64,000 nt of DNA from Escherichia phage OliverMaurmann_Bas86. Position numbers and translations under genes: made by a program. The stretch is taken from the sequence record PQ850622.1; one strand, given 5' to 3'. Positions 7,319 to 60,669 of the stretch are shown here, piece by piece. Each line of letters begins with the position of its first letter. Positions within the stretch are counted from its first letter, which is position 1. Below the pieces are notes generated by a model, which worked only from the letters and a program-made list of their open reading frames with translations, made no database searches and was not told the DNA's origin.

Positions 7319-8350
7319 ATGGCTTATGGAATATGGTGTCAACCTGTAGGACCGGGACCAGCTTCCCCAGCTCCTCTCTTTATTGATAGCGGAAGCACTT
7401 TTCCTCAAATAAAAAATTCAATAAGTGGGAGTTTCAACTTTAACGGGGCTGGTAGATCTTTTCCTATTAGTGGGTGGGATGGGAGTGGTCAAATAGTGAT
7501 TGTACCAACAGGCTCTCTTTGTTGGCAATGGGAGGTTCCTCCTAATTTAGTTCCTGATGTATATTGTGTCAACAATATCTATGTAGAGAATAACACATCA
7601 TTCAGGGTTACATTAAACCAAAACCCGGGAAGCAACCCTTTGTTTGACTGTGGTTTCAATGTATATCAAATCTACCCAAGAGCTGATAGGAACTATGGAA
7701 TAACCTTCTCTAATACAGCTGATTATTTCTCTATCTCAGATGCTGGGATTGTGGGTCAATGCATCTGGGCTTGGCAAGGAACTATAAACAACGCTCTACA
7801 GATACCTGATATTGGTGGTTTCTATATGCCTAATGCTGTAGTTTTTGCTAACTGGTCTGATGGTGGTGTTGGTTTATCTTATACATCAGGAGATAGGGTG
7901 ATTCGAGTTTATCAAAACAGGTCTTATAACAATGGCAACACTAATGAAGGTGGTTCTGTGTTTGCTAGGGTTGCTGTATTTTGTAATGGTGCTGGGGTTC
8001 CTGAACACAACGGCGGTTTAAATATATACTCTCCCGGAACTACTCAGTGCGTATTCTCTACTTATAGGTCTCCTTTTACAGTAGACACTTTCGTAGGCTC
8101 AGCAGGTGGAAATACTGGCTTAGCTTATCCTATGATTCCTCTGTCTTCTGGAGTTGGAGCTATCAGAGGAAGTGGGAGTGGTTGGTATTATCAACAAATG
8201 CGTTCTCATACCATGTCAGGGTCTTCAATAGGAACTGGATATGGTAGATATATGTTCCAATGGTCTAATAGTTATGACTTAGGTTCTAATGCTGCTGTTA
8301 ATATCTCCATCCCTGTAATCAACGCTGCTAAGATTTTTGCAGGTTTATGA
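7319..8350 (+). CDS. virion structural protein (unknown function)
   Basis: 343 aa ORF tightly packed in the structural operon; Gly/Ser/Asn-rich. Confidence 0.4.
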   Translation: MAYGIWCQPVGPGPASPAPLFIDSGSTFPQIKNSISGSFNFNGAGRSFPISGWDGSGQIVIVPTGSLCWQWEVPPNLVPDVYCVNNIYVENNTSFRVTLNQNPGSNPLFDCGFNVYQIYPRADRNYGITFSNTADYFSISDAGIVGQCIWAWQGTINNALQIPDIGGFYMPNAVVFANWSDGGVGLSYTSGDRVIRVYQNRSYNNGNTNEGGSVFARVAVFCNGAGVPEHNGGLNIYSPGTTQCVFSTYRSPFTVDTFVGSAGGNTGLAYPMIPLSSGVGAIRGSGSGWYYQQMRSHTMSGSSIGTGYGRYMFQWSNSYDLGSNAAVNISIPVINAAKIFAGL

Positions 8351-8362
8351 TAAGGAGTTTTT

Positions 8363-9160
8363 ATGACAAAAATAATGGGAGTGTCAGAGCTTGACCCTTT
8401 GGTCCAACAAGCTTCTAAGAAATATGGCATTCCTGCTGCTCTTATACATGCAGTGATTCAGAGAGAGTCTAATGGAAGACCTTCTGTTGAATCTGGTACA
8501 GGACCAGTAGGTTTAATGCAAATCAGTAAGGGGTTGGCTAAAGATTATGGATATAAACTTGAAGATAGGTTAGACCCTGCAAAGAATATTGACATGGGTG
8601 CTAGATATTTAAGAGATAACCTGAAAGCTTTTGATGGTGATGTGAGGAAGGCTTTGGTGGGGTATTCAGAAGGAACTGGTGGTGCTAAGCAAATGTTTGC
8701 TGGTAAGAGAGGGTTTACACCTCAAGCTTTAGATTCAATGAATAATAAGCTGTTCCTACCATTCTTTGATAAGAACACAGCAGCGGCACAAGTGGCTAAT
8801 CCTGTAGGTGCTTTGAAAGCAGTTCAGCCTGTGGACCAGTTTGATTCTAATACGCTGACTAGAGAAGGTGCTGCAAACGCTCCTACTCAAGCAGAGATAG
8901 CTGCAAGCAAGGCTGGAGCTTTAGGTGGTCGTCCTGTAGAGTTTTACTCTGATGAACAATCTACTGGGGAAAATCAAAAACCTCAACAGAACTTTGGAAA
9001 TGCTGTATTGGCAGCTGCTTCTATGCTTGCAGGAAAACAGCCTAACTCTCAAACCGTACAGAGAGCACATGCCCCTACTCAAGCAGGTTCTCGATACAGT
9101 CCACAAACACAAGCCGTGCTGAGACGTTTGTCTAGCATAGGTACTGATATTTACAGATAA
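8363..9160 (+). CDS. lytic transglycosylase (SLT domain), probably virion-associated
   Basis: ALIHAVIQRESNGRPSVESGTGPVGLMQI contains the SLT catalytic Glu-Ser and GLMQ motifs; RBS AAGGAG. Confidence 0.7.
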   Translation: MTKIMGVSELDPLVQQASKKYGIPAALIHAVIQRESNGRPSVESGTGPVGLMQISKGLAKDYGYKLEDRLDPAKNIDMGARYLRDNLKAFDGDVRKALVGYSEGTGGAKQMFAGKRGFTPQALDSMNNKLFLPFFDKNTAAAQVANPVGALKAVQPVDQFDSNTLTREGAANAPTQAEIAASKAGALGGRPVEFYSDEQSTGENQKPQQNFGNAVLAAASMLAGKQPNSQTVQRAHAPTQAGSRYSPQTQAVLRRLSSIGTDIYR

Positions 9161-9169
9161 GGAGGACGT

Positions 9170-10222
9170 ATGTCTCTTTTCGGTTCTGCTCCTAAATCTA
9201 AGACTACGGTAGCTCCGTCTTCTCAGGTTGATGCTCTTCTGAAACAGATTGTAGCAAATGCTCAGGCTATGAATCAAAACGATCAAGGTTTTATTGGTCG
9301 TAACGTAGCGGGTTTTAATGAAAACCAAACAGCAGCTCTTTCTAATTTAGCAAATTCTAACACACTCAACCAACTCAGTCAGATGTACACCCCTAGAACT
9401 CAACAAGGGTTGGACCAGATGAATGAGTTGGCTCAGAAATATCAAAACCTAGTTAATAAAGGTGGTATCACTGCTCAGGATGTTAATAATTTTAGCTCTG
9501 GATTGAATAGCTCTGCTTTAGCTAAGTCTACAGGTAAAGCTGCTGCTAATGTATCTCTTGGTAATGGTTCTGATTCAGGTTCTCTTAGACGTGCTGCTGC
9601 TCAAGGTGCTGCTCTTTCTTCAGCGAACACTAATCTCTCTCGCTCTATTCAGGGTAAAAATATGGGTGTTAACACTCTTCTGAATAACAACTCTTATCAG
9701 CAAGGTTTGCTAAACGCTCAATCTGGTTTAGCAGGTCAGAACTTGAATCTAGGTGCTGCTGGAGTACAAGCTGGTCAACAGGCAATACAGAATCAGCTTA
9801 CTGCTGGTAATCTTCAACAACAGCAAGATCAACTCCAAGCTAACAACAATTGGGAGAATGCTATTGGCAATCAACAGTACGGTTGGAATCAGCTTAACAA
9901 TCAGCTTAATGTATTAAACTCAGTAAGCCCTATGGCTGGATACACTATTACTAATAAAGGTGCTGCCCCTAGTGCTTCGCAACAAATCCTTGGTGCTGGC
10001 GTTACAGGTCTTGGTATTGCTGGTCGTTTAGGTGCTTTTACCCCTAACCAGCAAACTACTAATGCTTGGAACTCATACAATGCTTCTGGAGGTCAAGCCG
10101 GATTGGCTGGTCCTATGATTGGTGGCTCAAACCTGTCTCAACAGAATGGTCAGAGCAACTGGTTATCTACCGCAGGAAGTAATATCTTAGGTGGTGTTCT
10201 AGGAGCCTTTGGAGCAAATTAA
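9170..10222 (+). CDS. Q/N-rich low-complexity virion protein (paralog A)
   Basis: 350 aa; N-terminus MSLFGSAPKSKTT...GFIGRNVAGFNENQTAALSNL parallels the next gene; Gly-rich C-terminus. Confidence 0.45.
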   Translation: MSLFGSAPKSKTTVAPSSQVDALLKQIVANAQAMNQNDQGFIGRNVAGFNENQTAALSNLANSNTLNQLSQMYTPRTQQGLDQMNELAQKYQNLVNKGGITAQDVNNFSSGLNSSALAKSTGKAAANVSLGNGSDSGSLRRAAAQGAALSSANTNLSRSIQGKNMGVNTLLNNNSYQQGLLNAQSGLAGQNLNLGAAGVQAGQQAIQNQLTAGNLQQQQDQLQANNNWENAIGNQQYGWNQLNNQLNVLNSVSPMAGYTITNKGAAPSASQQILGAGVTGLGIAGRLGAFTPNQQTTNAWNSYNASGGQAGLAGPMIGGSNLSQQNGQSNWLSTAGSNILGGVLGAFGAN

Positions 10223-10231
10223 GGAGGAGCT

Positions 10232-11200
10232 ATGGCTTTATTCGGTGGTGGGAGTAGCAAGACTACTTCTAAAATGACAAGACCTGACTACATTCAGTCC
10301 TATATTGATCAGTTGGTCAATCAGGTTAATAACACTAGTTCAGGCGATTATGTGTATCGAGAAAATGTTGGACTTAATCAAAACCAGCAAGAAGCTCTGA
10401 ACAATCTATCACAATCTGGTGCATTAGGTGCACTTTCTTCTCAGTATATGGATGCTGCTCAATCTGGCTTAGGTTATCTAGATAATGCATACTCTGGATA
10501 TAACAACCTGTCTAACTCTGGTCAAATCACTGGGGAACAGATTGGTGCTCTTGCAGGCCAGCTCTATGACGATGAGGCTGTGCAAGCAGCTATTGCAGCG
10601 AATAATGAACAAACCCAACAGAGTTTGGCTAGGAATGCACTTCCTCAAATCTCTCAGCAGTTTGCTGGTCAGCAAGGTTCTGGTGCACGTATGGCTAAAT
10701 CTTTTGCTCAAGGTGATGCTCTGAACCAGATGCAGAACACAGCAACCAATATTACTAATAGTGCTTATGACTCCGCTCTAACTCAAGCACAGAACATTCT
10801 TTCTGGTAATAGACAAACACAAGCATCTGCTTTGGGTGGTTTATCTAACATTGGCTCCAATCTTGCTAATCTAGGAAACCAAGCTGGTCAGTTATCACAA
10901 CAGCAAATGATGAATCAGTGGAATGCAGGACTGCAACAGCAGCAACAACAGCAGTCTGATTTGAACAATGCTTATGAGAATGCTCAGAATGCCGCTAATT
11001 GGGGTTGGCAGGATATTAACAATCAACTAGGTGCTGCTGGGGTTCTTAATGGAGCTTTAGGGACAACCACAACTACTAAAACATCTGGTGGTAGTGGAGG
11101 CTTCCTAGGTGGTGCTGCTAGCGGTGCTGCTGCTGGCTCAGCTTTTGGCCCTTGGGGTGCTTTAGCTGGCGGTGTTATCGGTGGCTTAGCTAGCTCTTAA
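10232..11200 (+). CDS. Q/N-rich low-complexity virion protein (paralog B)
   Basis: 322 aa; N-terminus MALFGGGSSKTT...YRENVGLNQNQQEALNNL and Gly-rich C-terminus parallel 9170..10222. Confidence 0.45.
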   Translation: MALFGGGSSKTTSKMTRPDYIQSYIDQLVNQVNNTSSGDYVYRENVGLNQNQQEALNNLSQSGALGALSSQYMDAAQSGLGYLDNAYSGYNNLSNSGQITGEQIGALAGQLYDDEAVQAAIAANNEQTQQSLARNALPQISQQFAGQQGSGARMAKSFAQGDALNQMQNTATNITNSAYDSALTQAQNILSGNRQTQASALGGLSNIGSNLANLGNQAGQLSQQQMMNQWNAGLQQQQQQQSDLNNAYENAQNAANWGWQDINNQLGAAGVLNGALGTTTTTKTSGGSGGFLGGAASGAAAGSAFGPWGALAGGVIGGLASS

Positions 11201-11214
11201 TTAGGAGAATAATT

Positions 11215-12882
11215 ATGCAACAAACTTCTTATGCGTATCTTCGCAGTCAAGACCCAAGAAATCAGATTTATGGTGTTAAACAAGGGGCCGCTTCGGCCTC
11301 TCCATACATGGCAAGACCTGCTTACCCAGCTGCTGATGTTTCAATGTATAGTCAGAGACCTCCTGCCTCTCCTGTAGGTTTATCCTCTCTTGTTGCTACT
11401 GCTCAAGAAGACCAAGAAGCTATGTTAAATCCGGGATTTAGGCAGCGCCTTATGGAAGCAGAGAATCAAGGGACTCCTACAAGCCTTCAGGGTATTGATA
11501 TTGGCGAACCAGCTCCTGCTATGAATAACCCAGATCTATCCTCTGATGAGGGTCTACAAGCTGCTGGGTTGATGCCTAGTGACCCACTTCCTGTTACTCC
11601 TCCTCGTAAACCTCTGGAAGAAACAGATAAAGAGTTCTCTCCAGTTCAGGTGGAACAGGCTCAGAATGTTATTAACACTTTAGCTAATAGTAATCCAGCT
11701 CCTGAAGGTATGGCTGGTGCAACTCGTGCTAAAGACCAAGAACGTATTAATAATGATATTATGGAAGTAGCTAAAGCTAAAGATCCAGCACAAGCTTGGA
11801 ATGAGCTTCAGAAGCAACCGTTCTACCAGAAGTCTAGTTTCTATACTGGCTTAATGGGTGTTGGTCTTTCTATCATGTCAGGTAAATCCCCTATTGAAGC
11901 TTTCCAGATTGGTTCTGGCTTAGCTGCTCAGGATGAAACTAAACAACAACTAGAAGCCAACCGTGATGCTCTGTTAGAACAAGGCTATTCTCAAGATTCA
12001 GTTGCTGCTGCAATTGCTTCGGGAGATCCCTCCCTTCTCAAAATGCGTCAGATTAGTCCTCAGGAGAAGATGGCTCTTGCTGCTCAGGATGAAGAACGTG
12101 CTAATCGTGAGTGGGATAGACGTCAACAGATTCAAGAGAATTCGATGCGGGAACGTGCTGCTGAAACTCGTCGTGCTGCTGAAGAACGTGCTAATGCTCA
12201 GTTCGAGAAACAGAAAGAACTTATTGGATATCGTGATCAAGTTAAAGCAGAGCGTGCAGAGAAGGCTGCTCAGAGCTTTACTTTCAACCCTAAAGAAGTT
12301 CGTCTGGCTCAGAACACAGCAGAAGGTACAGTTGCTAAGCAGTGGGCAGAGAAAGCAGGTCTGTTCAACCAGTCTCATAAGGACTTGGATTTAGCAGACA
12401 AAGCTGTTAAGGATAAGGATTACCAAACTGCTCGTTCTGCTTACATGCAGGCTATTATGAACTCCGCAAGGGCAGAAATTGGTGCTAACCGTTCTCTCCA
12501 AGCTGATGACTTGGCTCACTTTGCAGAAGACCCGTCAATCTTCGTTAAGGTTGGTAATACTTGGTCCCTTAAAGCAGGCTATCGTCCTTCTGATGCTGCT
12601 CTGTCATATGCTCGTAAGCAGGCAACTGTTGGTGCTACTTCCGCTGAGAAAGGTGTGAAGGATGCTAAGAAAGCAACAATTGAGGCATATATCGGTTCTG
12701 GTATGGATAAGAAAAGAGCTACAGCTCTTGTCAACCGTGCTATCCCATCTGCTGGTTTCTATGACCCATTCGGTACGTTTGAGAGTGAAGCTGAAGCAGC
12801 TGTTGGTGGAGATACTACAAATCCTCGCTTAACAGGTGCTCTTTCTTCTTCAGCGGCAGATACGAGTTGGATGTTCCAGTAA
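11215..12882 (+). CDS. virion internal/structural protein
   Basis: 555 aa ORF with RBS, between structural genes; coiled-coil-rich. Confidence 0.4.
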   Translation: MQQTSYAYLRSQDPRNQIYGVKQGAASASPYMARPAYPAADVSMYSQRPPASPVGLSSLVATAQEDQEAMLNPGFRQRLMEAENQGTPTSLQGIDIGEPAPAMNNPDLSSDEGLQAAGLMPSDPLPVTPPRKPLEETDKEFSPVQVEQAQNVINTLANSNPAPEGMAGATRAKDQERINNDIMEVAKAKDPAQAWNELQKQPFYQKSSFYTGLMGVGLSIMSGKSPIEAFQIGSGLAAQDETKQQLEANRDALLEQGYSQDSVAAAIASGDPSLLKMRQISPQEKMALAAQDEERANREWDRRQQIQENSMRERAAETRRAAEERANAQFEKQKELIGYRDQVKAERAEKAAQSFTFNPKEVRLAQNTAEGTVAKQWAEKAGLFNQSHKDLDLADKAVKDKDYQTARSAYMQAIMNSARAEIGANRSLQADDLAHFAEDPSIFVKVGNTWSLKAGYRPSDAALSYARKQATVGATSAEKGVKDAKKATIEAYIGSGMDKKRATALVNRAIPSAGFYDPFGTFESEAEAAVGGDTTNPRLTGALSSSAADTSWMFQ

Positions 12883-12907
12883 TCTAAGACCTAAGTCCTA
12901 TCTCTTA

Positions 12908-12916
12908 TAATGTATA
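12908..12916 (+). promoter_or_regulatory. candidate phage-specific promoter element TAATGTATA (overlaps a TATAAT hexamer)
   Basis: Intergenic TATAATGTATATAGG about 40 nt upstream of the 12953 ATG; the same 9-mer recurs at 22828 and 22899. Confidence 0.45.
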
Positions 12917-12952
12917 TAGGAGGTAGGACATTTTTATTTATAAGGAGACGTT

Positions 12953-15900
12953 ATGGCTAATTTAAAATCGTGGGAAGAAGCTTCCAAAGCTCCTGCGTAT
13001 CTGAATGCCTCTCCAGAGCAACAGGCTCAAATGAGAGAACAATACAAGGCAGCAGGGGGCACTATTCCTGAGACTCAACCACAAGAGCAACCACAACAAG
13101 AAGAACGAGGTGTTATTGGGGAGTTTGCTCAAGGTGTGTCTAACGCTCTTCAATCAGGTGGTGCTAACATTGCAGCTAGTGCTGCTAAAGGTTTAGGTGG
13201 GCTGGTAGAGATTGGTGAAAACCTAACTGGTTCGGAAACAAGCTATGGTAAGCGCATTCAAGAGAACTCTAAGCAATTGCTGGAAGAACGCTTATCCAAG
13301 ATAGAAGATGGTTTTGGTAAAACAGCTGGTCAGTATGCTGGTGTTGCTGCTGATATTGGTTTGACAGTTGCAAACCCTGCTGTTGCTGCTGCTGTTATCG
13401 CAGCTCGTGAAACAGGTCGTGCTTATGCTGATCAAACTCCTAAAGAAGATGAAGATAAGTCAATCTTAGATGCTGCTCTTGTTGGTGGTGCTAACTACGC
13501 TGCTCAGAAGATACTTCCGGGCATGACTGGTACAGCTTCTACTACTCTAGGTCGTGTAGGACAAAGCGTAGCCTCTAACGCGGTTGCTGGTGCTAAGGGT
13601 GGTGCTATTGTTGGTGCTGCTGAAGCTCAGAACAAATATGGAGATGATACTACTCTAGCTAATGTCTTAGAAGGGGCTATTGAAGAAGGTGCACTCGGTG
13701 CCGCTTATGGTGGGGCGATTGGTGGGGTTCATGGGTTAATAAGTCGTCCTAGTCCTCAAGTGTTTGATCGTACTCCTGAGCATGTTAAGACTGACATTGC
13801 TGCTGAAGATGAGGCTATTCGTAAAGCTGCTAACGCTGATGAACTTCGTGAAGCCTATGCTAAAGCTGAGAATGCTAATGCTGCCTCTGCTTTAAACCTT
13901 CTGGATGAAAATGGTTTCCGAATCACAGATGCAGTTGCTATGGACTCTCCTGCTGTTCAACGTATATTAAATACAGATCAAAATCGTGCAGAGAAGGCTG
14001 CTACGGTTCAGAAAGATAGTTCTAACGTTCCCGGTCTTAATCCTTTAGCTTCTCCTAAGAAGACTCAAGGTAAAGCTTTTGCTGACAATGAGTACAACCA
14101 GAAACAAGCTGTGGCAATGAAAGATGCAATGGCTGACTACACTAAAGATAACACCAAAGCCCTTACTGATGTTCTAGACAATCTAGACCGAGAGTTAGTA
14201 GCTCTGAGAGCAAGTGGTGATTTTACTGGTAGTGCTATTGACATTAAAAACCGTACTCAAGCTGATCGTGATTTTATTGATGCTTATAAAACTTTTTACA
14301 GTGAAGCTAATCGTTTCAAAGCTCGTGATGGTGAAGACCTAAACAACTTCATTGATAAAGCTACTCAGTTGCAGAAGCTCTCTGAAAATGTTTCTCCAGA
14401 AATGAAGAAGGCCATTGGTGGATTAAAGAAACTAAAAGGTATGCCTGAAGGTTTTAACCCTATCCAAGATGCTTTCACTCTGAATAATACAGCTAAGTTC
14501 ATGAGTAACCAAGACCGTGGTTGGACCTCTCTGACTGATGACGGTTTTCGTGAAGCTCCGGCTCCTGTGTTAGTTAAGAATCCTCTCGGTGCAGCCAAGT
14601 ATGTACTTAACCGCTTTACTTCCGATCGTGCTCGTGCTCAACGTGAGAAGCAACAGTCAGCTAATAGCGAAGCTATCCGCTCTTTGGCTAGGGCTGATTT
14701 AGAAGTACAACGAGCTAGGACTCAGGCTGAAGAAGCAAGAGCAAAAATGGAAGAAGAACCAACCACAGAAGACATCAAATTCCGTACTCAAAATGATGCA
14801 CCTTCCGAACCGGTTCGTGAGGAGCCTTCTGCTACTACTGTGACAGAAGAAATTCCTTCCTCTCCAGCTCCAACTGAAACACCTCTTACTGCGAGGGATC
14901 TAGTTGCTCAAAGACGTGCTCTCCAACAAGCAGAGCTTAGACGTCAAGAAACTGAAGCTGCTCAGGCTCAAGAAAGTGCTACACCAGAACCTGAACCACA
15001 GCAAGAAGCTCTTACAGCTAGAGAATTAGTAGCTCAGCGTAGGGCTGTAGCAGAGGCTAAGAAACGTCAAGAGGCAGAGGAAGCAGAACGTGCTAAAGAA
15101 GCTCCTGAGGAGGCCGTAGAAGAGCCTAAAGAGAAACCTGAGCCATTACCTGCTCGTGCTCCTAAAGCTCCTGAGAAGGCTCCTGAGCCTGTTAAACCAT
15201 CACTCGGTGTAGAGCGTCTGGCTTCTATGTCAACTGCTGCCCGTCAGGCAACAAAAGATCGTGCTGACCGATTTGCTCGTTCTTTGTATTCGGCTGCTGC
15301 TAAAGCTAAAGCTACTGCGGAAAACTTCCTTTCTTATAAAGGAGACCCTAAAGAGCTTATGCGTCGTATCCGTCAGGAAGACCAAGCAAACAACACACAG
15401 CGTCATGAAGAGATGGCTAGAAATCAACTGGCTTCCCAGCAAGGCATTGCTTCTGCTAAATCTCAACATGTTCGTGCCTCTTTTGCTGATTGGGTAAAAG
15501 AACGTGGGTTGCCTTCTGATATCGCTACTAAAGCCTTACGGGCTGAAGAGAAAGGTTTAGGTGGGAACGTCACAAGCCTAGATTCACTGAAACGAAGAGC
15601 TGAACGTTTATATCAGAAACAGAGAGATGATGAATTTGACCGTCTCTATCGAGAGGCTCTGGAAGAGAATAAAGCGTTTGACAAGAAAGATGCTCCTAAA
15701 CTGGTAGATCAGAAGAAAGAACTTCAGGATGAAATTGGTACACTGCTTGATGCAGAACCTTTACGTCCTGCTCAGAAAGATGCTATGCGTAAGATCATGG
15801 AAGACTTTGTGGAGAGTAAGTTTAAATCTTCAGAGAAAGCTGGAAGGGTTGAGGCTTTGGAAGTTGGTCAAATGAAGGATGTGTGGGATGGGTTTATTAA

Positions 15901-17398
15901 TACCTATAACCGAGAAGTTAACATGTTCAACAAGGCTAACAAGAACTCTCAATACGAAGCAGCGGCTAAACACTTGCAAGCACGTCAAGAACGTCTTGAG
16001 ACGCTCCGTAACAGAGCTAAGGCTCGTAATGATGCCAAGGCAGCTATGGAAGCTGAAAAGCAGTCATTGGAAGCTATAGCGGCTCAGAAATCCGAGATGG
16101 AGAAGATGTTCAAAGAGTTGCCTGAAAGTGTCAGAGAAGCTCAGGAAGGTCGTACTTTGAAACAGCTTGCTGCTCACCACGATAAAAACTCTCCAGTACC
16201 ACCAGAGCGTTTCCGTAGTATTATTGAACGTATTCACAACGCTGAGAGTGATTACCTCGATCGCAAACGTCGTTTGACCGAAGCAGAGGAAGATGCTCGT
16301 GAGGCTAAGTGGAATAGGATGTATGAACAGGCTGAGGAAATGAACCGTAGGTTTGATATTGATTCTAGAGTGAAGAGAGACAAGGCTCTGAAAGAAGCTC
16401 AGGAACGAGAGAATGACCTAATGGCAGTTCAACGTCAACGTGATGACATTCATAAACGTTTAGTCAACACTCTGGAAGAGAAGGGGGTTTCTAGAGAGGA
16501 TGCTGAAGCGTATGCTGGTTCTTATATGGACAATCGGTATGCTTTGTTAGAGAAACCTATGACTCCAGTGGAACATCAGAATGCTCGTGCTCGTATCGAA
16601 TCTGACGTAGAGAAGTTTGTTAAGAAGTATGAAACAGCTACTCCAATCGAAAGAGAGATTGCTAAGGCAACTGGTGATGCAGATGGGAAAGCTTCTGACC
16701 TTGATGCAGAAACAGCAAAAGCTATCGAAGATGCTCGTAAAGTTGATTCTGATTTTAAGAAACTTTTAGATGAAGAGAAAGAAATGGAGAAGATTCGTTC
16801 GGCTCTACCTGAGGATGAAAGATCTCAGGCTAACTCTGATATTCTTGAAAGTATTAAGAAGCAGGAAGATGACTTTGCTAACAAAGCAGAGAAAGCTTTT
16901 ATTGAAGGGAAAGACTTGCAGGAGTTGGCGAGTGTTGCAGAGGTTCTAGATAGGGTTCATGGTGCAGATAAGGCTGGTAACAACCGTCGATTTGTACGTG
17001 CTCTACAGACTGCTGCTGAGAACAAGAAACGTTATGGAGATAATCCAGTGGCTTGGTTTAGTGCTGATGATTATTCTGCTATTGCGAAACTTGGTGCTGC
17101 TTCGGCAGGTGGTAACAAATCTCGAGCACTTGAGAAAATCTTTGGTTCTACAGCAGAACAAGCTAAAGGGAAACTTTTAGGGAGGGATGATGTAGCTAAG
17201 ATTAGACGTGTGATTGAAGCGAATCCTAATGCTAAGATTCCTTCTTACAAGACAACTACTCGACAAGAGTATTTACAGTTCTTGGAGAAGTATAATGATG
17301 AGGGAGAGTTGAAAGTCAAACGTGGTTCTCTGTCTGACAAGTTAGAAAGGGGTAAGCGTCAAGCTAAACTTCGTGTTAGAGTTCGAGCTAAGGAGTAA
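12953..17398 (+). CDS. large internal virion / DNA-ejection protein
   Basis: 1481 aa, Ala/Gly-rich N-terminus then long E/K/R/A-rich coiled-coil; last gene of the structural operon; RBS AAGGAG. Confidence 0.5.
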   Translation: MANLKSWEEASKAPAYLNASPEQQAQMREQYKAAGGTIPETQPQEQPQQEERGVIGEFAQGVSNALQSGGANIAASAAKGLGGLVEIGENLTGSETSYGKRIQENSKQLLEERLSKIEDGFGKTAGQYAGVAADIGLTVANPAVAAAVIAARETGRAYADQTPKEDEDKSILDAALVGGANYAAQKILPGMTGTASTTLGRVGQSVASNAVAGAKGGAIVGAAEAQNKYGDDTTLANVLEGAIEEGALGAAYGGAIGGVHGLISRPSPQVFDRTPEHVKTDIAAEDEAIRKAANADELREAYAKAENANAASALNLLDENGFRITDAVAMDSPAVQRILNTDQNRAEKAATVQKDSSNVPGLNPLASPKKTQGKAFADNEYNQKQAVAMKDAMADYTKDNTKALTDVLDNLDRELVALRASGDFTGSAIDIKNRTQADRDFIDAYKTFYSEANRFKARDGEDLNNFIDKATQLQKLSENVSPEMKKAIGGLKKLKGMPEGFNPIQDAFTLNNTAKFMSNQDRGWTSLTDDGFREAPAPVLVKNPLGAAKYVLNRFTSDRARAQREKQQSANSEAIRSLARADLEVQRARTQAEEARAKMEEEPTTEDIKFRTQNDAPSEPVREEPSATTVTEEIPSSPAPTETPLTARDLVAQRRALQQAELRRQETEAAQAQESATPEPEPQQEALTARELVAQRRAVAEAKKRQEAEEAERAKEAPEEAVEEPKEKPEPLPARAPKAPEKAPEPVKPSLGVERLASMSTAARQATKDRADRFARSLYSAAAKAKATAENFLSYKGDPKELMRRIRQEDQANNTQRHEEMARNQLASQQGIASAKSQHVRASFADWVKERGLPSDIATKALRAEEKGLGGNVTSLDSLKRRAERLYQKQRDDEFDRLYREALEENKAFDKKDAPKLVDQKKELQDEIGTLLDAEPLRPAQKDAMRKIMEDFVESKFKSSEKAGRVEALEVGQMKDVWDGFINTYNREVNMFNKANKNSQYEAAAKHLQARQERLETLRNRAKARNDAKAAMEAEKQSLEAIAAQKSEMEKMFKELPESVREAQEGRTLKQLAAHHDKNSPVPPERFRSIIERIHNAESDYLDRKRRLTEAEEDAREAKWNRMYEQAEEMNRRFDIDSRVKRDKALKEAQERENDLMAVQRQRDDIHKRLVNTLEEKGVSREDAEAYAGSYMDNRYALLEKPMTPVEHQNARARIESDVEKFVKKYETATPIEREIAKATGDADGKASDLDAETAKAIEDARKVDSDFKKLLDEEKEMEKIRSALPEDERSQANSDILESIKKQEDDFANKAEKAFIEGKDLQELASVAEVLDRVHGADKAGNNRRFVRALQTAAENKKRYGDNPVAWFSADDYSAIAKLGAASAGGNKSRALEKIFGSTAEQAKGKLLGRDDVAKIRRVIEANPNAKIPSYKTTTRQEYLQFLEKYNDEGELKVKRGSLSDKLERGKRQAKLRVRVRAKE

Positions 17399-20935: not shown

Positions 20936-21198
20936 TGTATTCCTCTCTCCTTTAGAGCTTTAAGCAAACCGTTGTGGTTAGCGGCACAGGTTGTATAATT
21001 GTCCTGATACCACTCGAGTGTTGTTGCAAGTGCTACTCCCTGTCCACTCTGAAGTAAAGGGAGGTCTACATCACATTCAGCTTTTAGGTTTGTTGGTAAG
21101 GGCATTAGCTGCCTGCTGTTGTCGCTCGTTGAACAAGCCATCAAACTAGAAGCGAGCAAAATCACCAAACAACTCTTTTGCTTTTTCTTTGTAAGCAT
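20932..21198 (-). CDS. lipoprotein (o-spanin-like candidate)
   Basis: From internal Met: MLTKKKQKSCLVILLASSLMAC with lipobox-like SLMAC, then Pro/Cys-containing mature part. Confidence 0.4.
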   Translation of the reverse strand: MLTKKKQKSCLVILLASSLMACSTSDNSRQLMPLPTNLKAECDVDLPLLQSGQGVALATTLEWYQDNYTTCAANHNGLLKALKERGIQ

Positions 21199-21496
21199 TT
21201 TCTGCACCTTCTTGAGTGCTATGATAACCAAGCCAAATTACTTTGTTTTGATATCCGATACGAGCACTCCATTTATTAATATCTGACCTGTATCCTACAC
21301 CTTTTATTCCAGTTAAAGAGTTCTTTTGAACTATTTTATTGGCATTGTTGAGGACAGGTGTTGCTTTTCTTAGATTGCTCCAAGAGTTATTAGACTTATC
21401 TAAATCTTTATGGTCTATTTGGAAATCGGGAATTTCTCCAGTTTTTATATACCAAGCAACTCGGTGAGCTTTGTATGTCTTTCTCTGAAAATTCAA
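21146..21496 (-). CDS. HNH homing endonuclease with AP2-type DNA-binding domain
   Basis: HRVAWYIKTGEIPDFQIDHKDLDKSNNSWSNLR (HNH) and GYRSDINKWSARIGYQNKVIWLGYHSTQEGAENAY (AP2-like). Confidence 0.6.
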   Translation of the reverse strand: MNFQRKTYKAHRVAWYIKTGEIPDFQIDHKDLDKSNNSWSNLRKATPVLNNANKIVQKNSLTGIKGVGYRSDINKWSARIGYQNKVIWLGYHSTQEGAENAYKEKAKELFGDFARF

Positions 21497-27941: not shown

Positions 27942-28211
27942 TTACTCCACTGTCGGGAAAGGTTTCAAATTATTCATAGCTGTACGAACAATAGCACAGA
28001 TTTCAGGGTCACGATAAGAGAGGAATTTTCCATCCTTGCCACGAATCATTACATTAGTTCGCGCTGTTTTGTTAGGTAATAAAGAGATCCCTCCAAGCAG
28101 GTGGTTGGTAGGATGTTGTCCTTGATTAACTTTGTAATCATGAGTGTGAGCCTCACCATTAAAGAGATGATCACGGATTTGAATTAAACTGATTTTCATA
28201 TTATGCACCAA
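27942..28211 (-). CDS. hypothetical protein (tandem paralog)
   Basis: Shares TARTNV..RG..GKF.S.RD...NLKPFP with 28201..28452. Confidence 0.35.
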   Translation of the reverse strand: MVHNMKISLIQIRDHLFNGEAHTHDYKVNQGQHPTNHLLGGISLLPNKTARTNVMIRGKDGKFLSYRDPEICAIVRTAMNNLKPFPTVE

Positions 28212-28452
28212 AGTTAGGGAAAGGTTTCAGGTTTTCAATGGACTTAGCGATACGCTTAGGGACACTCTTATCGCGGAAGGAGATGAATTTGCCATTAGCA
28301 CCACGAAGGGCTACGTTAGTACGAGCTGTTGTTGGATTAAACTGAATCATCTCAACAGAGCCTGTAATGTTTTCTACAGGGAAAGTGTAGCTCTCAGTTG
28401 CATTCATAGAAGGAAGGAAATCAGTTACAGTGATATAAGTTACTTTAGACAT
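28201..28452 (-). CDS. hypothetical protein (tandem paralog)
   Basis: Shares TARTNV..RG..GKF.S.RD...NLKPFP with 27942..28211. Confidence 0.35.
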   Translation of the reverse strand: MSKVTYITVTDFLPSMNATESYTFPVENITGSVEMIQFNPTTARTNVALRGANGKFISFRDKSVPKRIAKSIENLKPFPNFGA

Positions 28453-30836: not shown

Positions 30837-31484
30837 TTAACTCTCCAAAGTTTTCTTCAAAGCTGCCCATGAGATTGGATAGAGTTTAGCCATCTCTTCA
30901 TCTAATGACTGAGCAAATAGTCGAACTTCATATTGAGCATGGGATGATAGTCGTTGACGACACAATTCAAACCAGCCATACAAGCTACCAGTCCAGTACC
31001 AAGTAGTTACCATACCTTGAGGTAAAACAAATCTAGCTTGTTCAGGAGCTACGAACTTAATCAATTCGTCATAACTAGCAAGAGATGCCTCGTACGCAGA
31101 GTTAAACAAAGCTAAAGCTTTTGCCTCTTCCTCCCCTTCAAGAAGTATTCCAGAACCAGAATGTAGATCATCTGGACGGGAGAAGATTTCTTTAGGTATG
31201 AAAATATCCACTGCTCCATCTTTATATCTACGACTCATCTCGTTCCAAGAAAAACCAACTTGATGCTTCTGTAACTGTCGTGCAATTGCTATAGGAGCTT
31301 CGCATCTGAAGCTCGCTTGTGGGTGACGAAAAGGACTTACGTGTCGTTCCCGAGCTAGAAAATTTATTAGACGAGTGTCACTTTCTTTTAATTCTTCCCT
31401 TTCTACCCCCATAGTTACACGAGCAGCATTGACTACTGTAAGATCTGAACCGAAGTTATCAATTAATGAAGCTTTGATTGTCAT
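30837..31484 (-). CDS. thyX: flavin-dependent thymidylate synthase (ThyX-like)
   Basis: RHPQASFRCEAPIAIARQLQKHQVGFSWNEMSRRY matches the ThyX RHR...S...SxRY signature. Confidence 0.7.
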   Translation of the reverse strand: MTIKASLIDNFGSDLTVVNAARVTMGVEREELKESDTRLINFLARERHVSPFRHPQASFRCEAPIAIARQLQKHQVGFSWNEMSRRYKDGAVDIFIPKEIFSRPDDLHSGSGILLEGEEEAKALALFNSAYEASLASYDELIKFVAPEQARFVLPQGMVTTWYWTGSLYGWFELCRQRLSSHAQYEVRLFAQSLDEEMAKLYPISWAALKKTLES

Positions 31485-31950
31485 TTATGTAAGTCTCCTT
31501 GACTTTATTATATTCCCTAGAGGCTTCTTCTATGGTTGAGAAGAGTCCTATGTGCTTAGATTTAAATACCGCCCGGTAAGCAATAGAGCCACTTTTCCTT
31601 CTATGGACAGTCACTCCAATCACTCCGGTTGATAAATTATTACTCTGAGCTACTTTGTTTAGGCCATTTCCTGATCTAGTAGTCCCCCTAAGATTCTCTC
31701 TTTTGTTGTTTATCCTGTTGCGGTCTATGTGATCTACTTCTTCAGGAAGCAATCCAGTGTCCCACCAGTAAGCAAGTCGATGAGCGTAGTATCTAGCACC
31801 TTTATAAACGATTCTCAAATACCCATTGGTATTTACAGAACCAGCTATAGACCCTTTGTGTCCTTTTCCATAAGTTTTAACCCATCGGAAATCTCCAGTC
31901 AAAGGGTCGTAATCAAGAGCTTCTTTTATTGACGGGTCAATATCATTCAT
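31459..31950 (-). CDS. HNH homing endonuclease with AP2-type domain
   Basis: YAHRLAYWWDTGLLPEEVDHIDRNRINNKRENLR plus VIGVTVHRRKSGSIAYRAVFKSKHIGLFSTIEEASREY. Confidence 0.6.
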   Translation of the reverse strand: MNDIDPSIKEALDYDPLTGDFRWVKTYGKGHKGSIAGSVNTNGYLRIVYKGARYYAHRLAYWWDTGLLPEEVDHIDRNRINNKRENLRGTTRSGNGLNKVAQSNNLSTGVIGVTVHRRKSGSIAYRAVFKSKHIGLFSTIEEASREYNKVKETYINDNQSFIN

Positions 31951-33826: not shown

Positions 33827-34033
33827 CTAGTAGTGGACCTTGCTAGTCAAGGACCCAGCACTGTTATTATCATTTTGAAACCAGCGATGAATCTCCACTT
33901 TTTCAGCGAGTCCTAAAGCTTTTGTAGCTTTCTTAGCAAGACGAGCTTCTTGTCGTGTGTCGAATAATTTAAGACAGTCACCACCGAGATCTTTGTTAGC
34001 CCATTTAACACGAACTGCCCATAATTTAACCAT
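33827..34033 (-). CDS. hypothetical protein (tandem paralog)
   Basis: Shares W.VRV.W....TRQEAR and C-terminal KVHY with 34033..34248. Confidence 0.35.
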   Translation of the reverse strand: MVKLWAVRVKWANKDLGGDCLKLFDTRQEARLAKKATKALGLAEKVEIHRWFQNDNNSAGSLTSKVHY

Positions 34034-34248
34034 TAGTAATGTACCTTTCCGCTGATATAGAAACGACCTGATTTAAAGTCCTGAGCTTTGTGGATAGTGA
34101 TCTTGTCAATAGTACTTTCGCAGCTTAATAAGAACTTCTTATGAGCGCGAGCTTCTTGACGAGTGTTTCTGATACCCATTGACTCTGTACCACTGCTCCA
34201 GTGAACGCGGACTACCCAACGTCTTTTCATTGTTCCAAACTCCATCAA
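34033..34248 (-). CDS. hypothetical protein (tandem paralog)
   Basis: Shares W.VRV.W....TRQEAR and C-terminal KVHY with 33827..34033. Confidence 0.35.
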   Translation of the reverse strand: MMEFGTMKRRWVVRVHWSSGTESMGIRNTRQEARAHKKFLLSCESTIDKITIHKAQDFKSGRFYISGKVHY

Positions 34249-45268: not shown

Positions 45269-46078
45269 TTATACAATCTGGAGTTTAGAGGAGAATTTAT
45301 CCGCTTCTTTAACATCGTTGCTGTTGATGATGTTATGAAGCTTTTCGATTGGAAGACGAGAGTGAAGTGACATCAACACTTCCATATCACAGCCTTGAAC
45401 AACCTTATCCACTTGCTCATAAACAAACTTGCGGGTTGACTTCTCACCAATCCAGAAGTTAGAAAGAGAACGATATTCAATACCGTAGTCCTTGTAACGA
45501 ATAGCAGAAGCCTTTCCGTACAACTCTTTACGACGAGTGTCTTTATCCATGATTACAGCTGGCAAGGACAGGAAGTAATCACACAGCACACCCAACATCA
45601 TTTGAGTTTGTCGATTGATCTCCAAAGTTCCAGAGACACCGAGGTGCACATGGCCCCCAGCAGTACGCAAACCTTTATCGGTTGCGACTGGTGAAGGGTT
45701 CTTTTGTCCAGTGAAGGCGTTGAAATCAGGAGTACAGCCAAATACAAAAGCTGACGGATGGAATGATTCAAGCTCTTCTGAAGTGAACACATGAGAGCTA
45801 ATCCCAAGCGCTGCTTCCAGACCACGATCATTCAGGATTTTGTTAGTCAGATCAATACCGCGCTGAATATTATCATCAAACGCTTCAAACCCTTTCTGTG
45901 GGTTAATATCAAACTCAGCCAGAACGTTGTCTTCTTGAAGACGAACATCAGGAGCCAGATCAATTTTGTTATCTTTAGAACATCCCAGCTTACCAGCCAC
46001 AGAGGTGATAATACCGGAAGCAGTACGAACAAACATTTCCGGATCCGACCCTATTAAGAATTTACGTTTAGTAGTCAT
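45269..46078 (-). CDS. second amidoligase-like protein (weaker match)
   Basis: FLIGSDPEMF and GGHVHLGV echo the same GxExE / HVH pattern. Confidence 0.35.
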   Translation of the reverse strand: MTTKRKFLIGSDPEMFVRTASGIITSVAGKLGCSKDNKIDLAPDVRLQEDNVLAEFDINPQKGFEAFDDNIQRGIDLTNKILNDRGLEAALGISSHVFTSEELESFHPSAFVFGCTPDFNAFTGQKNPSPVATDKGLRTAGGHVHLGVSGTLEINRQTQMMLGVLCDYFLSLPAVIMDKDTRRKELYGKASAIRYKDYGIEYRSLSNFWIGEKSTRKFVYEQVDKVVQGCDMEVLMSLHSRLPIEKLHNIINSNDVKEADKFSSKLQIV

Positions 46079-46545
46079 GCTTTAGTCCAACCTTTATGAG
46101 ATAGATAGTTTTTAAATCTGCCACTGTGCACAGCGCCCATGTGGCCTTGATGTAAGTCGTTGCTTCTACAGAAGTCTCTAAGATTGTATATTGTTACAAC
46201 CTCGCCATCTGGAGATCTAAACTTCCAAAATCTAGCATTCCCTTTCACAGCGTTTTCTTCACTGGTCAGAAGTTGGAAATTACTTGGGTGGTTATTAAGT
46301 TTATCGCCATCGATGTGATCAACAGTCATACCATCCGGAATAGGCCCAATAAACAATTCATACATAAGTCTATGTAATAAAAAGTTCCTTGTTATCTTTT
46401 CAGGAGCCTGAACTGTTGTAAACTTAAGATAACCATCTTTATCAGGAAACAGTTTCCTCTGTTTCCCTGTTCTTGCATGGAATATACTACCGTCTTCGAA
46501 CACCAAGAAGGTAGCAACTCCGACTACTAACTCCCTAAATTCCAT
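46075..46545 (-). CDS. HNH homing endonuclease
   Basis: VDHIDGDKLNNHPSNFQLLTSEEN. Confidence 0.55.
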   Translation of the reverse strand: MEFRELVVGVATFLVFEDGSIFHARTGKQRKLFPDKDGYLKFTTVQAPEKITRNFLLHRLMYELFIGPIPDGMTVDHIDGDKLNNHPSNFQLLTSEENAVKGNARFWKFRSPDGEVVTIYNLRDFCRSNDLHQGHMGAVHSGRFKNYLSHKGWTKA

Positions 46546-60145: not shown

Positions 60146-60421
60146 TTATGTAACATTACTCACCACTTTATCTAGATGATCATCGAACGTTTCACAAATG
60201 GATTGCACTTCGTCAATATCTAGTAACAGACCGTGACGGGCAAAGAATTGAGCTAACTCAAGATAATCCGCACCAATAAGCATGACACCATTGAAAGGGG
60301 CGATCTTAACATCTTGAGATGTTACCAATAATAAATTACCAATATCAGCAATAGCATCATAATTCAGTGTAACGCCTACGCCGTAATTATGTGTTTCAAT
60401 AATGGCGATAGTTTCCATCAT
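60146..60421 (-). CDS. hypothetical protein (possible tandem paralog)
   Basis: N-terminus METIAIIETHNYGVGV parallels the next gene. Confidence 0.3.
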   Translation of the reverse strand: MMETIAIIETHNYGVGVTLNYDAIADIGNLLLVTSQDVKIAPFNGVMLIGADYLELAQFFARHGLLLDIDEVQSICETFDDHLDKVVSNVT

Positions 60422-60669
60422 TAGTTATCCTCGATAGTCAATAACTCTTCCAGCGATAAGCCAGATTTAACCAGCAAATCACGATACTCGTTAGCATCCA
60501 TCGGATCGAGGCCGGACAATTGAGCGATGGTCATGCGTGCACGTAATGAAGGTAAGGAAACTAAAGCACGGATAGGGATCAATACAAGCCCATATTTACC
60601 ACTGATAACTAAATCACCGTGCTGGATGCACATATGAGCATTTACTACGATTGCAAATGATTCATTCAC
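60421..60669 (-). CDS. hypothetical protein (possible tandem paralog)
   Basis: N-terminus MNESFAIVVNAHMCIQHG; ATGA overlap with neighbour. Confidence 0.3.
   Translation of the reverse strand: MNESFAIVVNAHMCIQHGDLVISGKYGLVLIPIRALVSLPSLRARMTIAQLSGLDPMDANEYRDLLVKSGLSLEELLTIEDN

Follow-up and report, generated by a model that had tools for sequence, protein, structure and literature searches.

The window, by which we mean the whole 64,000-nucleotide stretch of Escherichia phage OliverMaurmann_Bas86 (PQ850622.1) that was analysed, is ~99% identical to vB_EcoP_SU7, an Escherichia phage of the phiEco32/SU10-like Gordonclarkvirinae. An initial annotation, made from the sequence alone, had drawn attention to two adjacent open reading frames at 9170-10222 and 10232-11200, which it described as tandemly duplicated, Q/N-rich virion proteins with a common N-terminal block and Gly-rich C-termini. 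Both reading frames are present as described, and we refer to them and to their products as A and B. They belong to a cassette of five genes encoding, in order, an SLT transglycosylase, A, B, a 555-aa protein and a 1481-aa protein, with the following features:

8363..9160, plus strand: SLT lytic transglycosylase, first gene of the cassette (Pfam SLT PF01464, E=1.5e-24; phrog_12507; SU7 gp019 "transglycosylase"; orthologue of SU10 gp20).
9170..10222, plus strand: paralogue A, 350 aa, assigned as an ejection protein; orthologue of SU10 gp21 and phiEco32 gp23; probable derived copy.
9170..9364, plus strand: N-terminal block of A common to B, residues 1-65, MSLFG..KTT..NVAGFNENQTAALSNLANS, aligned by hhalign with high confidence to B residues 1-64.
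9977..10219, plus strand: Gly-rich C-terminal region of A, residues 270-350, with a zipper broken by polar Q/N/S inserts and then an extra Gly-rich tail.
10232..11200, plus strand: paralogue B, 322 aa, assigned as an ejection protein; orthologue of SU10 gp22 and phiEco32 gp24 "DNA injection protein"; probable ancestral-like copy.
11093..11197, plus strand: uninterrupted C-terminal glycine zipper of B, SGGFLGGAASGAAAGSAFGPWGALAGGVIGGLASS, with a "PWGA" core.
11215..12882, plus strand: 555-aa ejection protein (phrog_12130; orthologue of SU10 gp23 by synteny).
12953..17398, plus strand: 1481-aa ejection protein, last gene of the cassette (phrog_14629; orthologue of SU10 gp24 by synteny).

Both A and B are Q/N-rich, as had been noted (27% and 25% Q+N respectively), and charged residues are sparse in both (7-8%). 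The phrog_4287 "DNA ejection protein" profile HMM matched A with E=5.3e-103 (residues 1-350) and B with E=4.3e-99 (residues 1-310). A Pfam scan returned no family for A or B at E<=1, nor for any member of the small gene pairs described below, and a PDB sequence search with the A and B family profiles gave nothing meaningful (one lysozyme at E=0.15). AF2 models built from the family alignments were of low confidence (mean pLDDT 41-42 for both proteins); in these models long helices are predicted, and the helix patterns of A and B match.

When aligned with each other, A and B share ~29% identity and are colinear across nearly their full length (residue 1 to ~320). The alignment displays both the N-terminal block (MSLFGSAPKSKTT...NVAGFNENQTAALSNLANS in A, MALFGGGSSKTT...NVGLNQNQQEALNNLSQS in B) and the Gly-rich C-termini that the initial annotation had listed as common to the pair. 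The Smith-Waterman score of 295 compares with 97±12 for global shuffles (z=15.9) and 119±15 for shuffles within 20-residue windows (z=12, Gumbel p ~5e-7). Using blastp with Smith-Waterman traceback, we obtained E=4.7e-13 with 29.5% identity over 271 aa; the orthologue alignment of A, compared with that of B by hhalign, gave a probability of 99.9% (E=6.5e-32, 274 columns), and reciprocal, bias-corrected HMMER matches between the two families ranged from 1e-21 to 1e-34. Default BLASTP with compositional matrix adjustment missed the homology (E=1.7), a false negative that is an artefact of the heuristic and of the composition adjustment. That value, and the strongly biased composition of both proteins, might suggest the convergence of two low-complexity Q/N/A/G-rich proteins whose alignment is a by-product of composition, but this reading is effectively refuted and has next to no chance of being correct, since the signal persists under local-composition shuffles (z=12), the colinear alignment contains specific motifs (MxLFG, NxNQxxAL, GWxxxNNQL), the cross-family HMM matches hold after bias correction, and the N-terminal 105 residues alone still align at E=3e-4 after SEG masking. 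The pairwise alignment that had been proposed as a check thus yields significant similarity, the tandem duplication is confirmed (both shuffles, hhalign and the assignment of both proteins to phrog_4287), and these alignments indicate that A and B are true paralogues.

A and B derive from one ancient duplication: no DNA-level repeat was found between the two genes, so the event is old. Between the paralogues dN was 0.88 and dS 1.26; dS is saturated, which makes the dN/dS of the pair uninformative, and comparisons with orthologues were used in its place. The dN/dS check proposed for the pair therefore gave no usable value between A and B, whereas between orthologues both genes were constrained (0.00-0.11): against E20-1, Bas88 and phiEco32, dN/dS was 0.08-0.11 for A and 0-0.10 for B. 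Both are held by purifying selection (dN/dS of ~0.1 or below). A related-locus search with the B-family alignment returned 13 loci. The A-then-B order was found in phiEco32, in SU10, in metagenomic relatives of 82-90 kb and in elements from E. coli and Enterobacter assemblies, and was kept in every sampled SU10-like relative having both genes; more distant relatives (L014, L019, L026 and L028) have a single copy. In a midpoint-rooted neighbour-joining tree, which carries no bootstrap support, the A clade and the B clade are sisters.

Orthology to a phage with experimental data bears on what the two proteins do. The window open reading frames from 8363 to 17398 correspond in order and size to SU10 gp20-24 and phiEco32 gp22-26, with tail-fibre genes upstream, and gap-free alignments show A to be 77% identical to SU10 gp21 over 350 aa and B 82% identical to SU10 gp22 over 322 aa. 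SU10 gp20-24 are reported to be present in virions and missing from genome-release intermediates; gp20, the orthologue of the SLT gene product, is described as an ejection protein and gp23 as a virion protein lost at genome release, and the cryo-EM maps are reported to lack density for gp21 and gp22 (PMC9509320). Virion mass spectrometry covered 53% of gp21 and 49% of gp22 and also detected gp24, of 163 kDa (PMC4281155). As SU10 gp21 and gp22 are found in virions yet are gone after genome release, they behave as head-packaged ejection proteins and not as fixed structural parts, and by orthology to these SU10 experiments A and B are assigned as ejection proteins. The description of A and B as virion proteins thus agrees with mass spectrometry of their SU10 orthologues, and the virion proteomics that the initial annotation had wished for already exists for this close relative. 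The likeness to SU10 gp21/gp22 (phiEco32 gp23/gp24) extends to lengths (350 and 322 aa), the order of the five-gene cassette, the RefSeq name "DNA ejection protein" carried by both, and the membership of both in phrog_4287; SU10 differs in belonging to the genus Kuravirus, the window phage being a Suseptimavirus. Neither PMC9965538 nor PMC4281155, in a word search of the available text, was found to describe gp21 and gp22 as paralogues: the former had no "paralog" or "duplicat" wording in that text, and the latter a single, unrelated occurrence of "duplicat".

The orthologues also bear on whether one of the two genes lacks a role of its own and persists as a redundant or decaying duplicate. 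A would be the candidate, as it diverges faster (77% identity to phiEco32, compared with 82% for B), its glycine zipper is interrupted, and the B HMM scores the single-copy relatives more highly than the A HMM does. A is nevertheless under the constraint given above (0.08-0.11), is full length, is kept in every lineage carrying B and, over 26 orthologous sequences whose identity falls as low as 39%, retains 28 invariant columns; its SU10 orthologue is in virions (gp21, 53% coverage; PMC4281155). Constraint, conservation and virion presence together disfavour decay or redundancy, which we consider very improbable.

The C-termini distinguish the two paralogues. B has 10 GxxxG motifs within its last 60 residues, and its zipper motif is widespread among representatives of the family. 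Pfam glycine-zipper families (e.g. PF13441, Gly-zipper_YMGG) did not match A or B at E<=1; in the relative P0117 a Gly-zipper match stayed below threshold (18 bits, cut-off 28.9). Kyte-Doolittle maxima at the A and B C-termini are 1.07-1.29, i.e. weakly hydrophobic, with the A peak of 1.29 at residues 273-291. Several other relatives (P0119, P0127, P0140, P0141, P0160, P0189 and P0205) end in a Peptidase_S74 intramolecular-chaperone domain, and two of these (P0189 and P0205) are fused to a cell-wall hydrolase; S74 is absent from A, B and all of their orthologues, which have glycine zippers at their ends. Our literature searches on glycine zippers in ejection proteins found nothing.

Outside the phiEco32/SU10-like phages, the B family matched LUZ24 gp53 in hhalign with a probability of 95.4% (E=1.7e-8, 205 columns) and LUZ24 gp53 matched phrog_4287 with E=2e-10, which indicates that B is homologous to LUZ24 gp53; a direct comparison of B with phrog_7477 reached only E=0.015, and we regard PHROG 4287 and PHROG 7477 as related families, not as one. 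LUZ24 gp53 is, like B, a virion protein with a Gly-rich C-terminus (313 aa), and its gene, the small one that opens a cassette of three ejection genes, is followed by those of larger ejection proteins of 505 and 1055 aa. The 313/505/1055-aa series matches the sizes of Pa223 gp56/gp54/gp53, and on genus, size and synteny LUZ24 gp53 is a putative orthologue of Pa223 gp56. For Pa223 gp56, a preprint (bioRxiv 10.1101/2025.06.11.659172) proposes the part of a gp14-like channel in the outer membrane, with transmembrane helices at the C-terminus and a channel modelled by AF3 as a nonamer; this role is a prediction (MemBrain and AF3). In contrast to the window phage, the Bruynoghevirus gene is present in a single copy, with ~17-35% identity to the B family over the aligned part only, and the LUZ24 cassette is without a separate SLT gene.

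A more restricted match was obtained with P22 gp7 (PF25688, phrog_598). The C-terminus of the B family aligned by hhalign with that of the gp7 family (probability 76%, E=2.3e-5), and a broader B-like profile matched the gp7 profile with a probability of 95.4% (E=2e-8) over 37 columns at the extreme C-termini of both. Beyond the last ~37 residues hhalign found no similarity between gp7 and the B family (34-37 low-complexity columns aligned), the gp7 family PF25688 was not matched by A or B at E<=1, and hhalign of A against gp7 gave nothing. The match thus appears to be a common module and not family membership, and it could be convergence. Further points of likeness are the position of the PWGA zipper at an equal distance from the C-terminus in gp7 and B, a Q/N/A/G-rich, charge-poor composition, and the place of gp7 as the first of the ejection-protein genes; gp7, a small ejection protein of the "gp14-like outer-membrane" class, differs in length (229 aa versus 322-350 aa) and is single-copy in P22. 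The merged A/B family gave no hhalign match to P22 gp20 or gp16. T7 gp14 (internal virion protein B, the outer-membrane pore of the T7 ejectosome) showed no similarity (hhalign probability 0.1%, E=0.62) and offers a functional analogy only, as a small helical ejected protein whose gene precedes those for the larger components of the tunnel and the inner membrane. It is 196 aa long and has no C-terminal glycine zipper visible in its translated sequence, and the SLT domain lies inside T7 gp16 but in a separate gene in the window phage.

Taken as a whole, we find it probable that A and B are old tandem paralogues of a ~320-aa, all-helical, Q/N/A/G-rich and charge-poor ejection family (PHROG 4287) that is OM-channel-like, and that the two have sub-functionalised. 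The family would correspond, in enlarged form, to the small ejection protein regarded as the "outer-membrane channel" (a role ascribed to T7 gp14, P22 gp7 and Pa223 gp56). In favour of such a role are the homology of B to LUZ24 gp53, the match in size between the LUZ24 and Pa223 cassettes, the C-terminal zipper and composition that recall P22 gp7, and the relatives fused to a cell-wall hydrolase. After departure of the tail needle, A and B would travel through the nozzle and refold into a helical oligomeric tube that lengthens it; their C-terminal glycine-zipper segments may become embedded in the host envelope, while peptidoglycan would be cut by the SLT enzyme and the conduit completed by the 555-aa and 1481-aa proteins. 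B would retain the ancestral, unbroken C-terminal "FGPWGA..GG.IGG" zipper and A a version split by polar inserts and followed by an extra tail; from this difference between the two sequences we infer that A and B are most likely sub-functionalised, either joining in a hetero-oligomer or stacking as two rings, and not redundant.

A different role for ejected homologues would be that of a trimeric coiled coil or fibre-like element (plug, needle extension or periplasmic rod), or of proteins acting at the inner membrane, and not of an outer-membrane channel. We hold this to be rather unlikely. In its favour, many relatives end in Peptidase_S74, which is typical of trimeric fibres and not of 9-12-mer channels, the low-confidence AF2 models predict long helices, the A and B C-termini are weakly hydrophobic and similarity to T7 gp14 is absent. 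It accounts less well for the glycine-zipper ends of A, B and all orthologues, none of which has S74, for the homology of B to the small first gene product of the LUZ24 ejection cassette, and for the C-terminal motif common to B and P22 gp7. A bolder version of the channel reading, which we think unlikely, would make A and B an obligate hetero-oligomeric outer-membrane/nozzle-extension channel specific to nozzle-forming SU10-like podoviruses, with the "PWGA" zipper as an ancient membrane-insertion module of common descent with P22 gp7 and LUZ24 gp53. If so, P22-like and LUZ24/phiEco32-like podoviruses would have small ejection proteins that belong to one deep family, and other relatives would carry an S74 chaperone in place of the PWGA module, or the module joined to a cell-wall hydrolase.

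Rapid divergence, and refolding once they have left the particle, make the ejection proteins of podoviruses some of the most poorly understood parts of the virion. A Kuravirus-type cassette that encodes two paralogues of one protein, together with the homology to the proposed Bruynoghevirus channel protein and the C-terminal zipper common to P22 gp7, would allow parts within the five-protein Kuravirus ejectosome to be assigned in a concrete way that can be tested. The duplication is real but already covered by phage family catalogues and by the virion proteomics of a close relative, and the two genes are already in published genomes under one PHROG and one product name; the result is an annotation refinement and not a discovery, and the biology is ordinary. 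It carries a practical warning that default, composition-adjusted BLASTP overlooks real homology in Q/N-rich proteins such as these.

The remaining candidate tandem pairs of the window comprise small genes on the minus strand:

27942..28211, minus strand: small paralogue 1a (phrog_6814, E=3.8e-30), true start probably the ATG at 28199.
28201..28452, minus strand: small paralogue 1b (phrog_6814); pair kept in phiEco32 as phi32_56/57.
33827..34033, minus strand: small paralogue 2a (phrog_4939).
34033..34248, minus strand: small paralogue 2b (phrog_4939); three copies in phiEco32, phi32_69/70/71.
52698..52862, minus strand: small paralogue 3a (phrog_8294), with a zinc-ribbon-like H/C..H.W ... CxxC pattern.
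52872..53042, minus strand: small paralogue 3b (phrog_8294); one copy in phiEco32, phi32_107.
60146..60421 and 60421..60669, minus strand: adjoining small open reading frames, not paralogues.

Two of the pairs named in the initial annotation were upheld, that at 27942-28452 (35% identity, BLASTP E=1e-15, z=21.8, both phrog_6814) and that at 33827-34248 (33% identity, BLASTP E=3e-9, z=16, both phrog_4939). The pair it had listed as possible at 60146-60669 is ruled out: BLASTP produced no alignment, shuffling gave z=-0.8, and the two reading frames have no PHROG in common (phrog_16976 and no family). Its view that repeated local duplication is a strong feature of the genome holds insofar as four tandem pairs are real, but it is overstated, with 4 pairs among ~109 ORFs, all of them old (29-39% identity). 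The duplications are ancient and mostly common to phiEco32, and do not point to local duplication that is still under way; the three small pairs (phrog_6814, phrog_4939 and phrog_8294) stem from old duplications in which genes of the early or middle region were copied. The 3a/3b pair is a real one that the initial annotation had missed (39% identity, BLASTP E=1e-10, z=20.3).

Across positions 8000-13000, the window shares 99.1% identity with Escherichia phage vB_EcoP_SU7 (Gordonclarkvirinae, Suseptimavirus) and 75-98% with some 100 phiEco32/SU10-like coliphages. According to the SU7 and Bas87 annotations, the tandem genes A and B lie after the tail-fibre genes, within an ejection cassette:

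8363-9160, +, transglycosylase (SLT), first in the cassette (SU7/Bas87 annotation)
9170-10222, +, A (350 aa), "hypothetical" in SU7 and "DNA ejection protein" in Bas87
10232-11200, +, B (322 aa), "DNA injection/ejection protein"
directly after B in gene order, a 555-aa protein, then a 1481-aa protein (SU7/Bas87 annotation)

Both ORFs are exactly as delimited in the initial annotation. Beyond the 1481-aa gene, near 17.4 kb, there is a bidirectional terminator and the coding strand switches. Just upstream of the cassette, ORF 7319-8350 (+, 343 aa; DUF6453, phrog_1265) is annotated as "membrane protein / moron", and its SU10 orthologue gp19 (343 aa) is listed as undetected in virions.

The initial annotation had proposed that A and B arose by tandem duplication and called for their alignment. 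Both proteins have a biased composition (27% Q+N and 7% charged residues in A, 25% and 8% in B), and default pairwise BLASTP with compositional matrix adjustment returned E=1.7. This is a false negative: two-sequence BLASTP gave E=1.7 with composition-based statistics 2 or 3, against values from 1e-13 (Smith-Waterman traceback) to 1e-32 (profiles), and Q/N-rich phage proteins are prone to such misses. With Smith-Waterman traceback, BLASTP aligned 271 aa at 29.5% identity (E=4.7e-13). The raw Smith-Waterman score was 295, compared with 97 ± 12 over 1000 global shuffles (z=15.9) and 119 ± 15 when shuffling within 20-residue windows, which keeps local composition (z=12, Gumbel p ~5e-7). We then built family alignments from the collected orthologues of A (A1, n=26 sequences) and of B (A2, n=31) and compared them using hhalign, resulting in 274 colinear columns with a probability of 99.9% (E=6.5e-32). 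In related loci the HMMs of the two families cross-match at 1e-21 to 1e-34, and each protein is matched by phrog_4287 from end to end (~1e-100 each). Together with the shared N-terminal block and Gly-rich C-termini visible in the alignments, these shuffle tests and profile matches confirm the duplication, and a compositional artefact is effectively excluded.

No DNA-level repeat was found between the two genes beyond short in-register remnants at conserved motifs. The dN/dS analysis suggested for the pair was run but cannot be interpreted between paralogues, since dS is saturated (dN 0.88). Between orthologues (window versus E20-1, Bas88 and phiEco32), dN/dS was 0.08-0.11 for A and 0-0.10 for B, with similar values for the neighbouring ejection genes. 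Both copies are functional, and a decaying duplicate is effectively excluded. All Gordonclarkvirinae sampled have A followed by B. So do metagenomic relatives of 82-90 kb, at only ~55% identity, and elements from E. coli and Enterobacter assemblies that carry the SU10-type capsid and portal together with the same SLT-A-B-~500aa-~1100aa cassette.

Two such loci are L020 (E. coli assembly GCA_023211535.1, DAHCAP010000002.1, 204-225 kb of a 389.6 kb contig) and L030 (Logan SRR24679947, 59.9 kb contig), whose protein P0086 is named at NCBI from Enterobacter cloacae. Each carries an SU10-type module in the order capsid protein, terminase, portal, SLT, A-like (333-334 aa), B-like (322 aa), ~495 aa and ~1110 aa. 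The named Gordonclarkvirinae records encountered are free phage genomes. L020 and L030 may represent relatives, prophage-like or co-assembled, whose structural module is rearranged, with the ejection genes directly following the portal.

An exhaustive profile search of the A/B family yielded 1055 representative clusters at E<=1e-3. Among 142 representative matches scored by both HMMs, A1 scored higher in 41 and A2 in 95. More distant SU10-adaptor-containing phages and other contigs carry a single copy, which scores higher against B in L014, L019 (both with genome context read) and L026, and against A in L028. In a neighbour-joining tree without support values, A and B form two monophyletic sister clades, and the other relatives sampled, including single-copy ones, fall outside A+B. 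These patterns are most simply read as a single ancient duplication basal to the SU10-like clade, with B near the ancestral form and A diverged. L026 comes from a more distantly related SU10-adaptor phage, whose only family member (9001-10272, 423 aa) lies upstream rather than downstream of the SLT gene and is followed by proteins of 181, 192, 610 and 1525 aa, so that gene order inside the ejection cassette is not fixed.

SU10 gp21 and gp22 align without gaps to A (77% identity) and B (82%), respectively, and the synteny is the same. Mass spectrometry of SU10 phage preparations detected gp21 (35.9 kDa) at 53% coverage and gp22 (33.3 kDa) at 49% (PMC4281155). In a cryo-EM study, gp20-24, termed the five ejection proteins, were present in virions and absent from genome-release intermediates, without resolved density (PMC9509320). 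The proteomics proposed in the initial annotation thus already exists for a close relative and upholds its description of A and B as virion proteins; it indicates that they are packaged in the head and ejected, rather than being fixed structural parts. A and B are conserved, paralogous, ejected head proteins of a five-gene cassette. In the papers searched, gp21 is called hypothetical and gp22 a DNA injection protein; a word search of PMC4281155 and PMC9965538 found no mention of their paralogy, which is recorded implicitly by a common PHROG and a common RefSeq product name.

The C-terminus of B is an uninterrupted glycine zipper, SGGFLGGAASGAAAGSAFGPWGALAGGVIGGLASS; its FGPWGA core is also present at the C-terminal end of many distant members of the family. 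The A zipper is the same but split by polar inserts, and is extended by an additional 31-residue Gly-rich tail. The zipper in the A2 profile matches the extreme C-terminus of the P22 gp7 family (probability 76%, E=2.3e-5), as does a broader B-like profile (95.4%, E=2e-8, 37 columns). P22 gp7, classed as a gp14-like outer-membrane ejection protein (PMC8954989), resembles A and B in composition; no similarity to the B family was found beyond the C-terminal segment, and neither A nor B matched Pfam PF25688 (P22 gp7). The match is a shared module or convergence, not family membership. Using hhalign, no similarity to the A/B family was detected for T7 gp14, P22 gp20 or P22 gp16.

In some relatives a Peptidase_S74 intramolecular-chaperone domain immediately follows the helical domain and takes the place of the zipper (P0189, P0205 at L028:7120-10551, P0119, P0127, P0140, P0141 and P0160). 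In P0189 and P0205 (~1150 aa) it is followed by a Hydrolase_2 cell-wall hydrolase, an unusual combination for an ejection protein; the hydrolase fusions are consistent with an envelope-penetrating role. Gly-zipper segments like the PWGA end of B also occur near the N-terminus of otherwise unrelated 264-697 aa proteins in other viral contigs (L015, L016, L017 and L018), including two of ~695 aa (L015:7860-9944, L018:7788-9881). Such recurrence could reflect a mobile module for membrane insertion, or simply a low-complexity solution that arises repeatedly.

LUZ24 gp53 (313 aa, phrog_7477, "phage particle protein") matches phrog_4287 (2e-10) and the B family (hhalign probability 95.4%, E=1.7e-8, 205 columns). 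The LUZ24 cassette comprises gp53, gp52, gp51 (505 aa) and gp50 (1055 aa), of which gp53, gp51 and gp50 equal Pa223 gp56, gp54 and gp53 in size. LUZ24 and Pa223 are Bruynogheviruses; a preprint on Pa223 proposes gp56 as its gp14-like outer-membrane channel, with transmembrane helices predicted at the C-terminus and a nonameric channel modelled by AF3 (bioRxiv 10.1101/2025.06.11.659172). AF2 monomer models (pLDDT ~42) predict A and B to be all-helical with the same helix succession, and a PDB sequence search retrieved no relatives of either family.

We lean slightly towards A and B corresponding to the small outer-membrane component of podovirus ejectosomes, duplicated and enlarged. Once the needle is released, they would exit via the nozzle and refold into a helical oligomeric tube, with the glycine-zipper C-termini as anchors. 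Cutting of the cell wall would fall to the SLT protein, and the rest of the conduit would be formed by the 555-aa and 1481-aa proteins. The main alternative, that A and B make up a trimeric rod or some other element of the conduit, seems rather unlikely; S74 domains hint at trimeric assembly in the relatives that bear them. The differing C-termini argue for sub-functionalisation of A and B, as a hetero-oligomer or two stacked rings.

A/B-type genes, their virion location, ejection and grouping in a single PHROG were already on record, making this a known finding with a modest annotation gain. We add an explicit, statistically controlled demonstration of ancient paralogy between the gp21-type and gp22-type proteins, a link to the Bruynoghevirus outer-membrane-channel candidate, and a C-terminal motif in common with P22 gp7.

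To survey tandem pairs, we ran an all-versus-all BLASTP of 109 non-overlapping ORFs and a Smith-Waterman shuffle scan of 309 neighbouring ORF pairs. Exactly four stood out: A/B (z=14.7); 27942-28211/28201-28452 (35% identity, E=1e-15, z=21.8, both phrog_6814) and 33827-34033/34033-34248 (33%, E=3e-9, z=16, both phrog_4939), both anticipated in the initial annotation; and 52698-52862/52872-53042 (39%, z=20.3, both phrog_8294), absent from its list. A further pair proposed there, 60146-60421/60421-60669, was rejected (no alignment, z=-0.8, no common PHROG). The three small pairs belong to PHROGs of unknown function, and no Pfam family was found in their members. In phiEco32, the 27942/28201 pair is kept (phi32_56/57), 33827/34033 is a triplet (phi32_69/70/71) and 52698/52872 a single copy (phi32_107). 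The four pairs are old duplications (29-39% identity), mostly predating the Suseptimavirus/Kuravirus split, and calling repeated local duplication a strong feature of the genome was an overstatement.

The runner-up in the scan was 52480-52731 versus 52698-52862 (z=4.9). ORF 52480-52731 (-), just downstream of the 52698/52872 pair, contains C.HEW ... CxxC and may represent a third copy, diverged further, of the small zinc-ribbon-like CxHxW...CxxC protein (phrog_8294). ORFs 21146-21496, 31459-31950 and 46075-46545 (all -) are dispersed paralogues (30-38% identity) which, placed by region rather than gene by gene, sit among SU7-annotated HNH homing endonuclease genes; in SU7, an HNH gene is annotated between two pieces labelled DNA polymerase (gp049, gp050, gp051).
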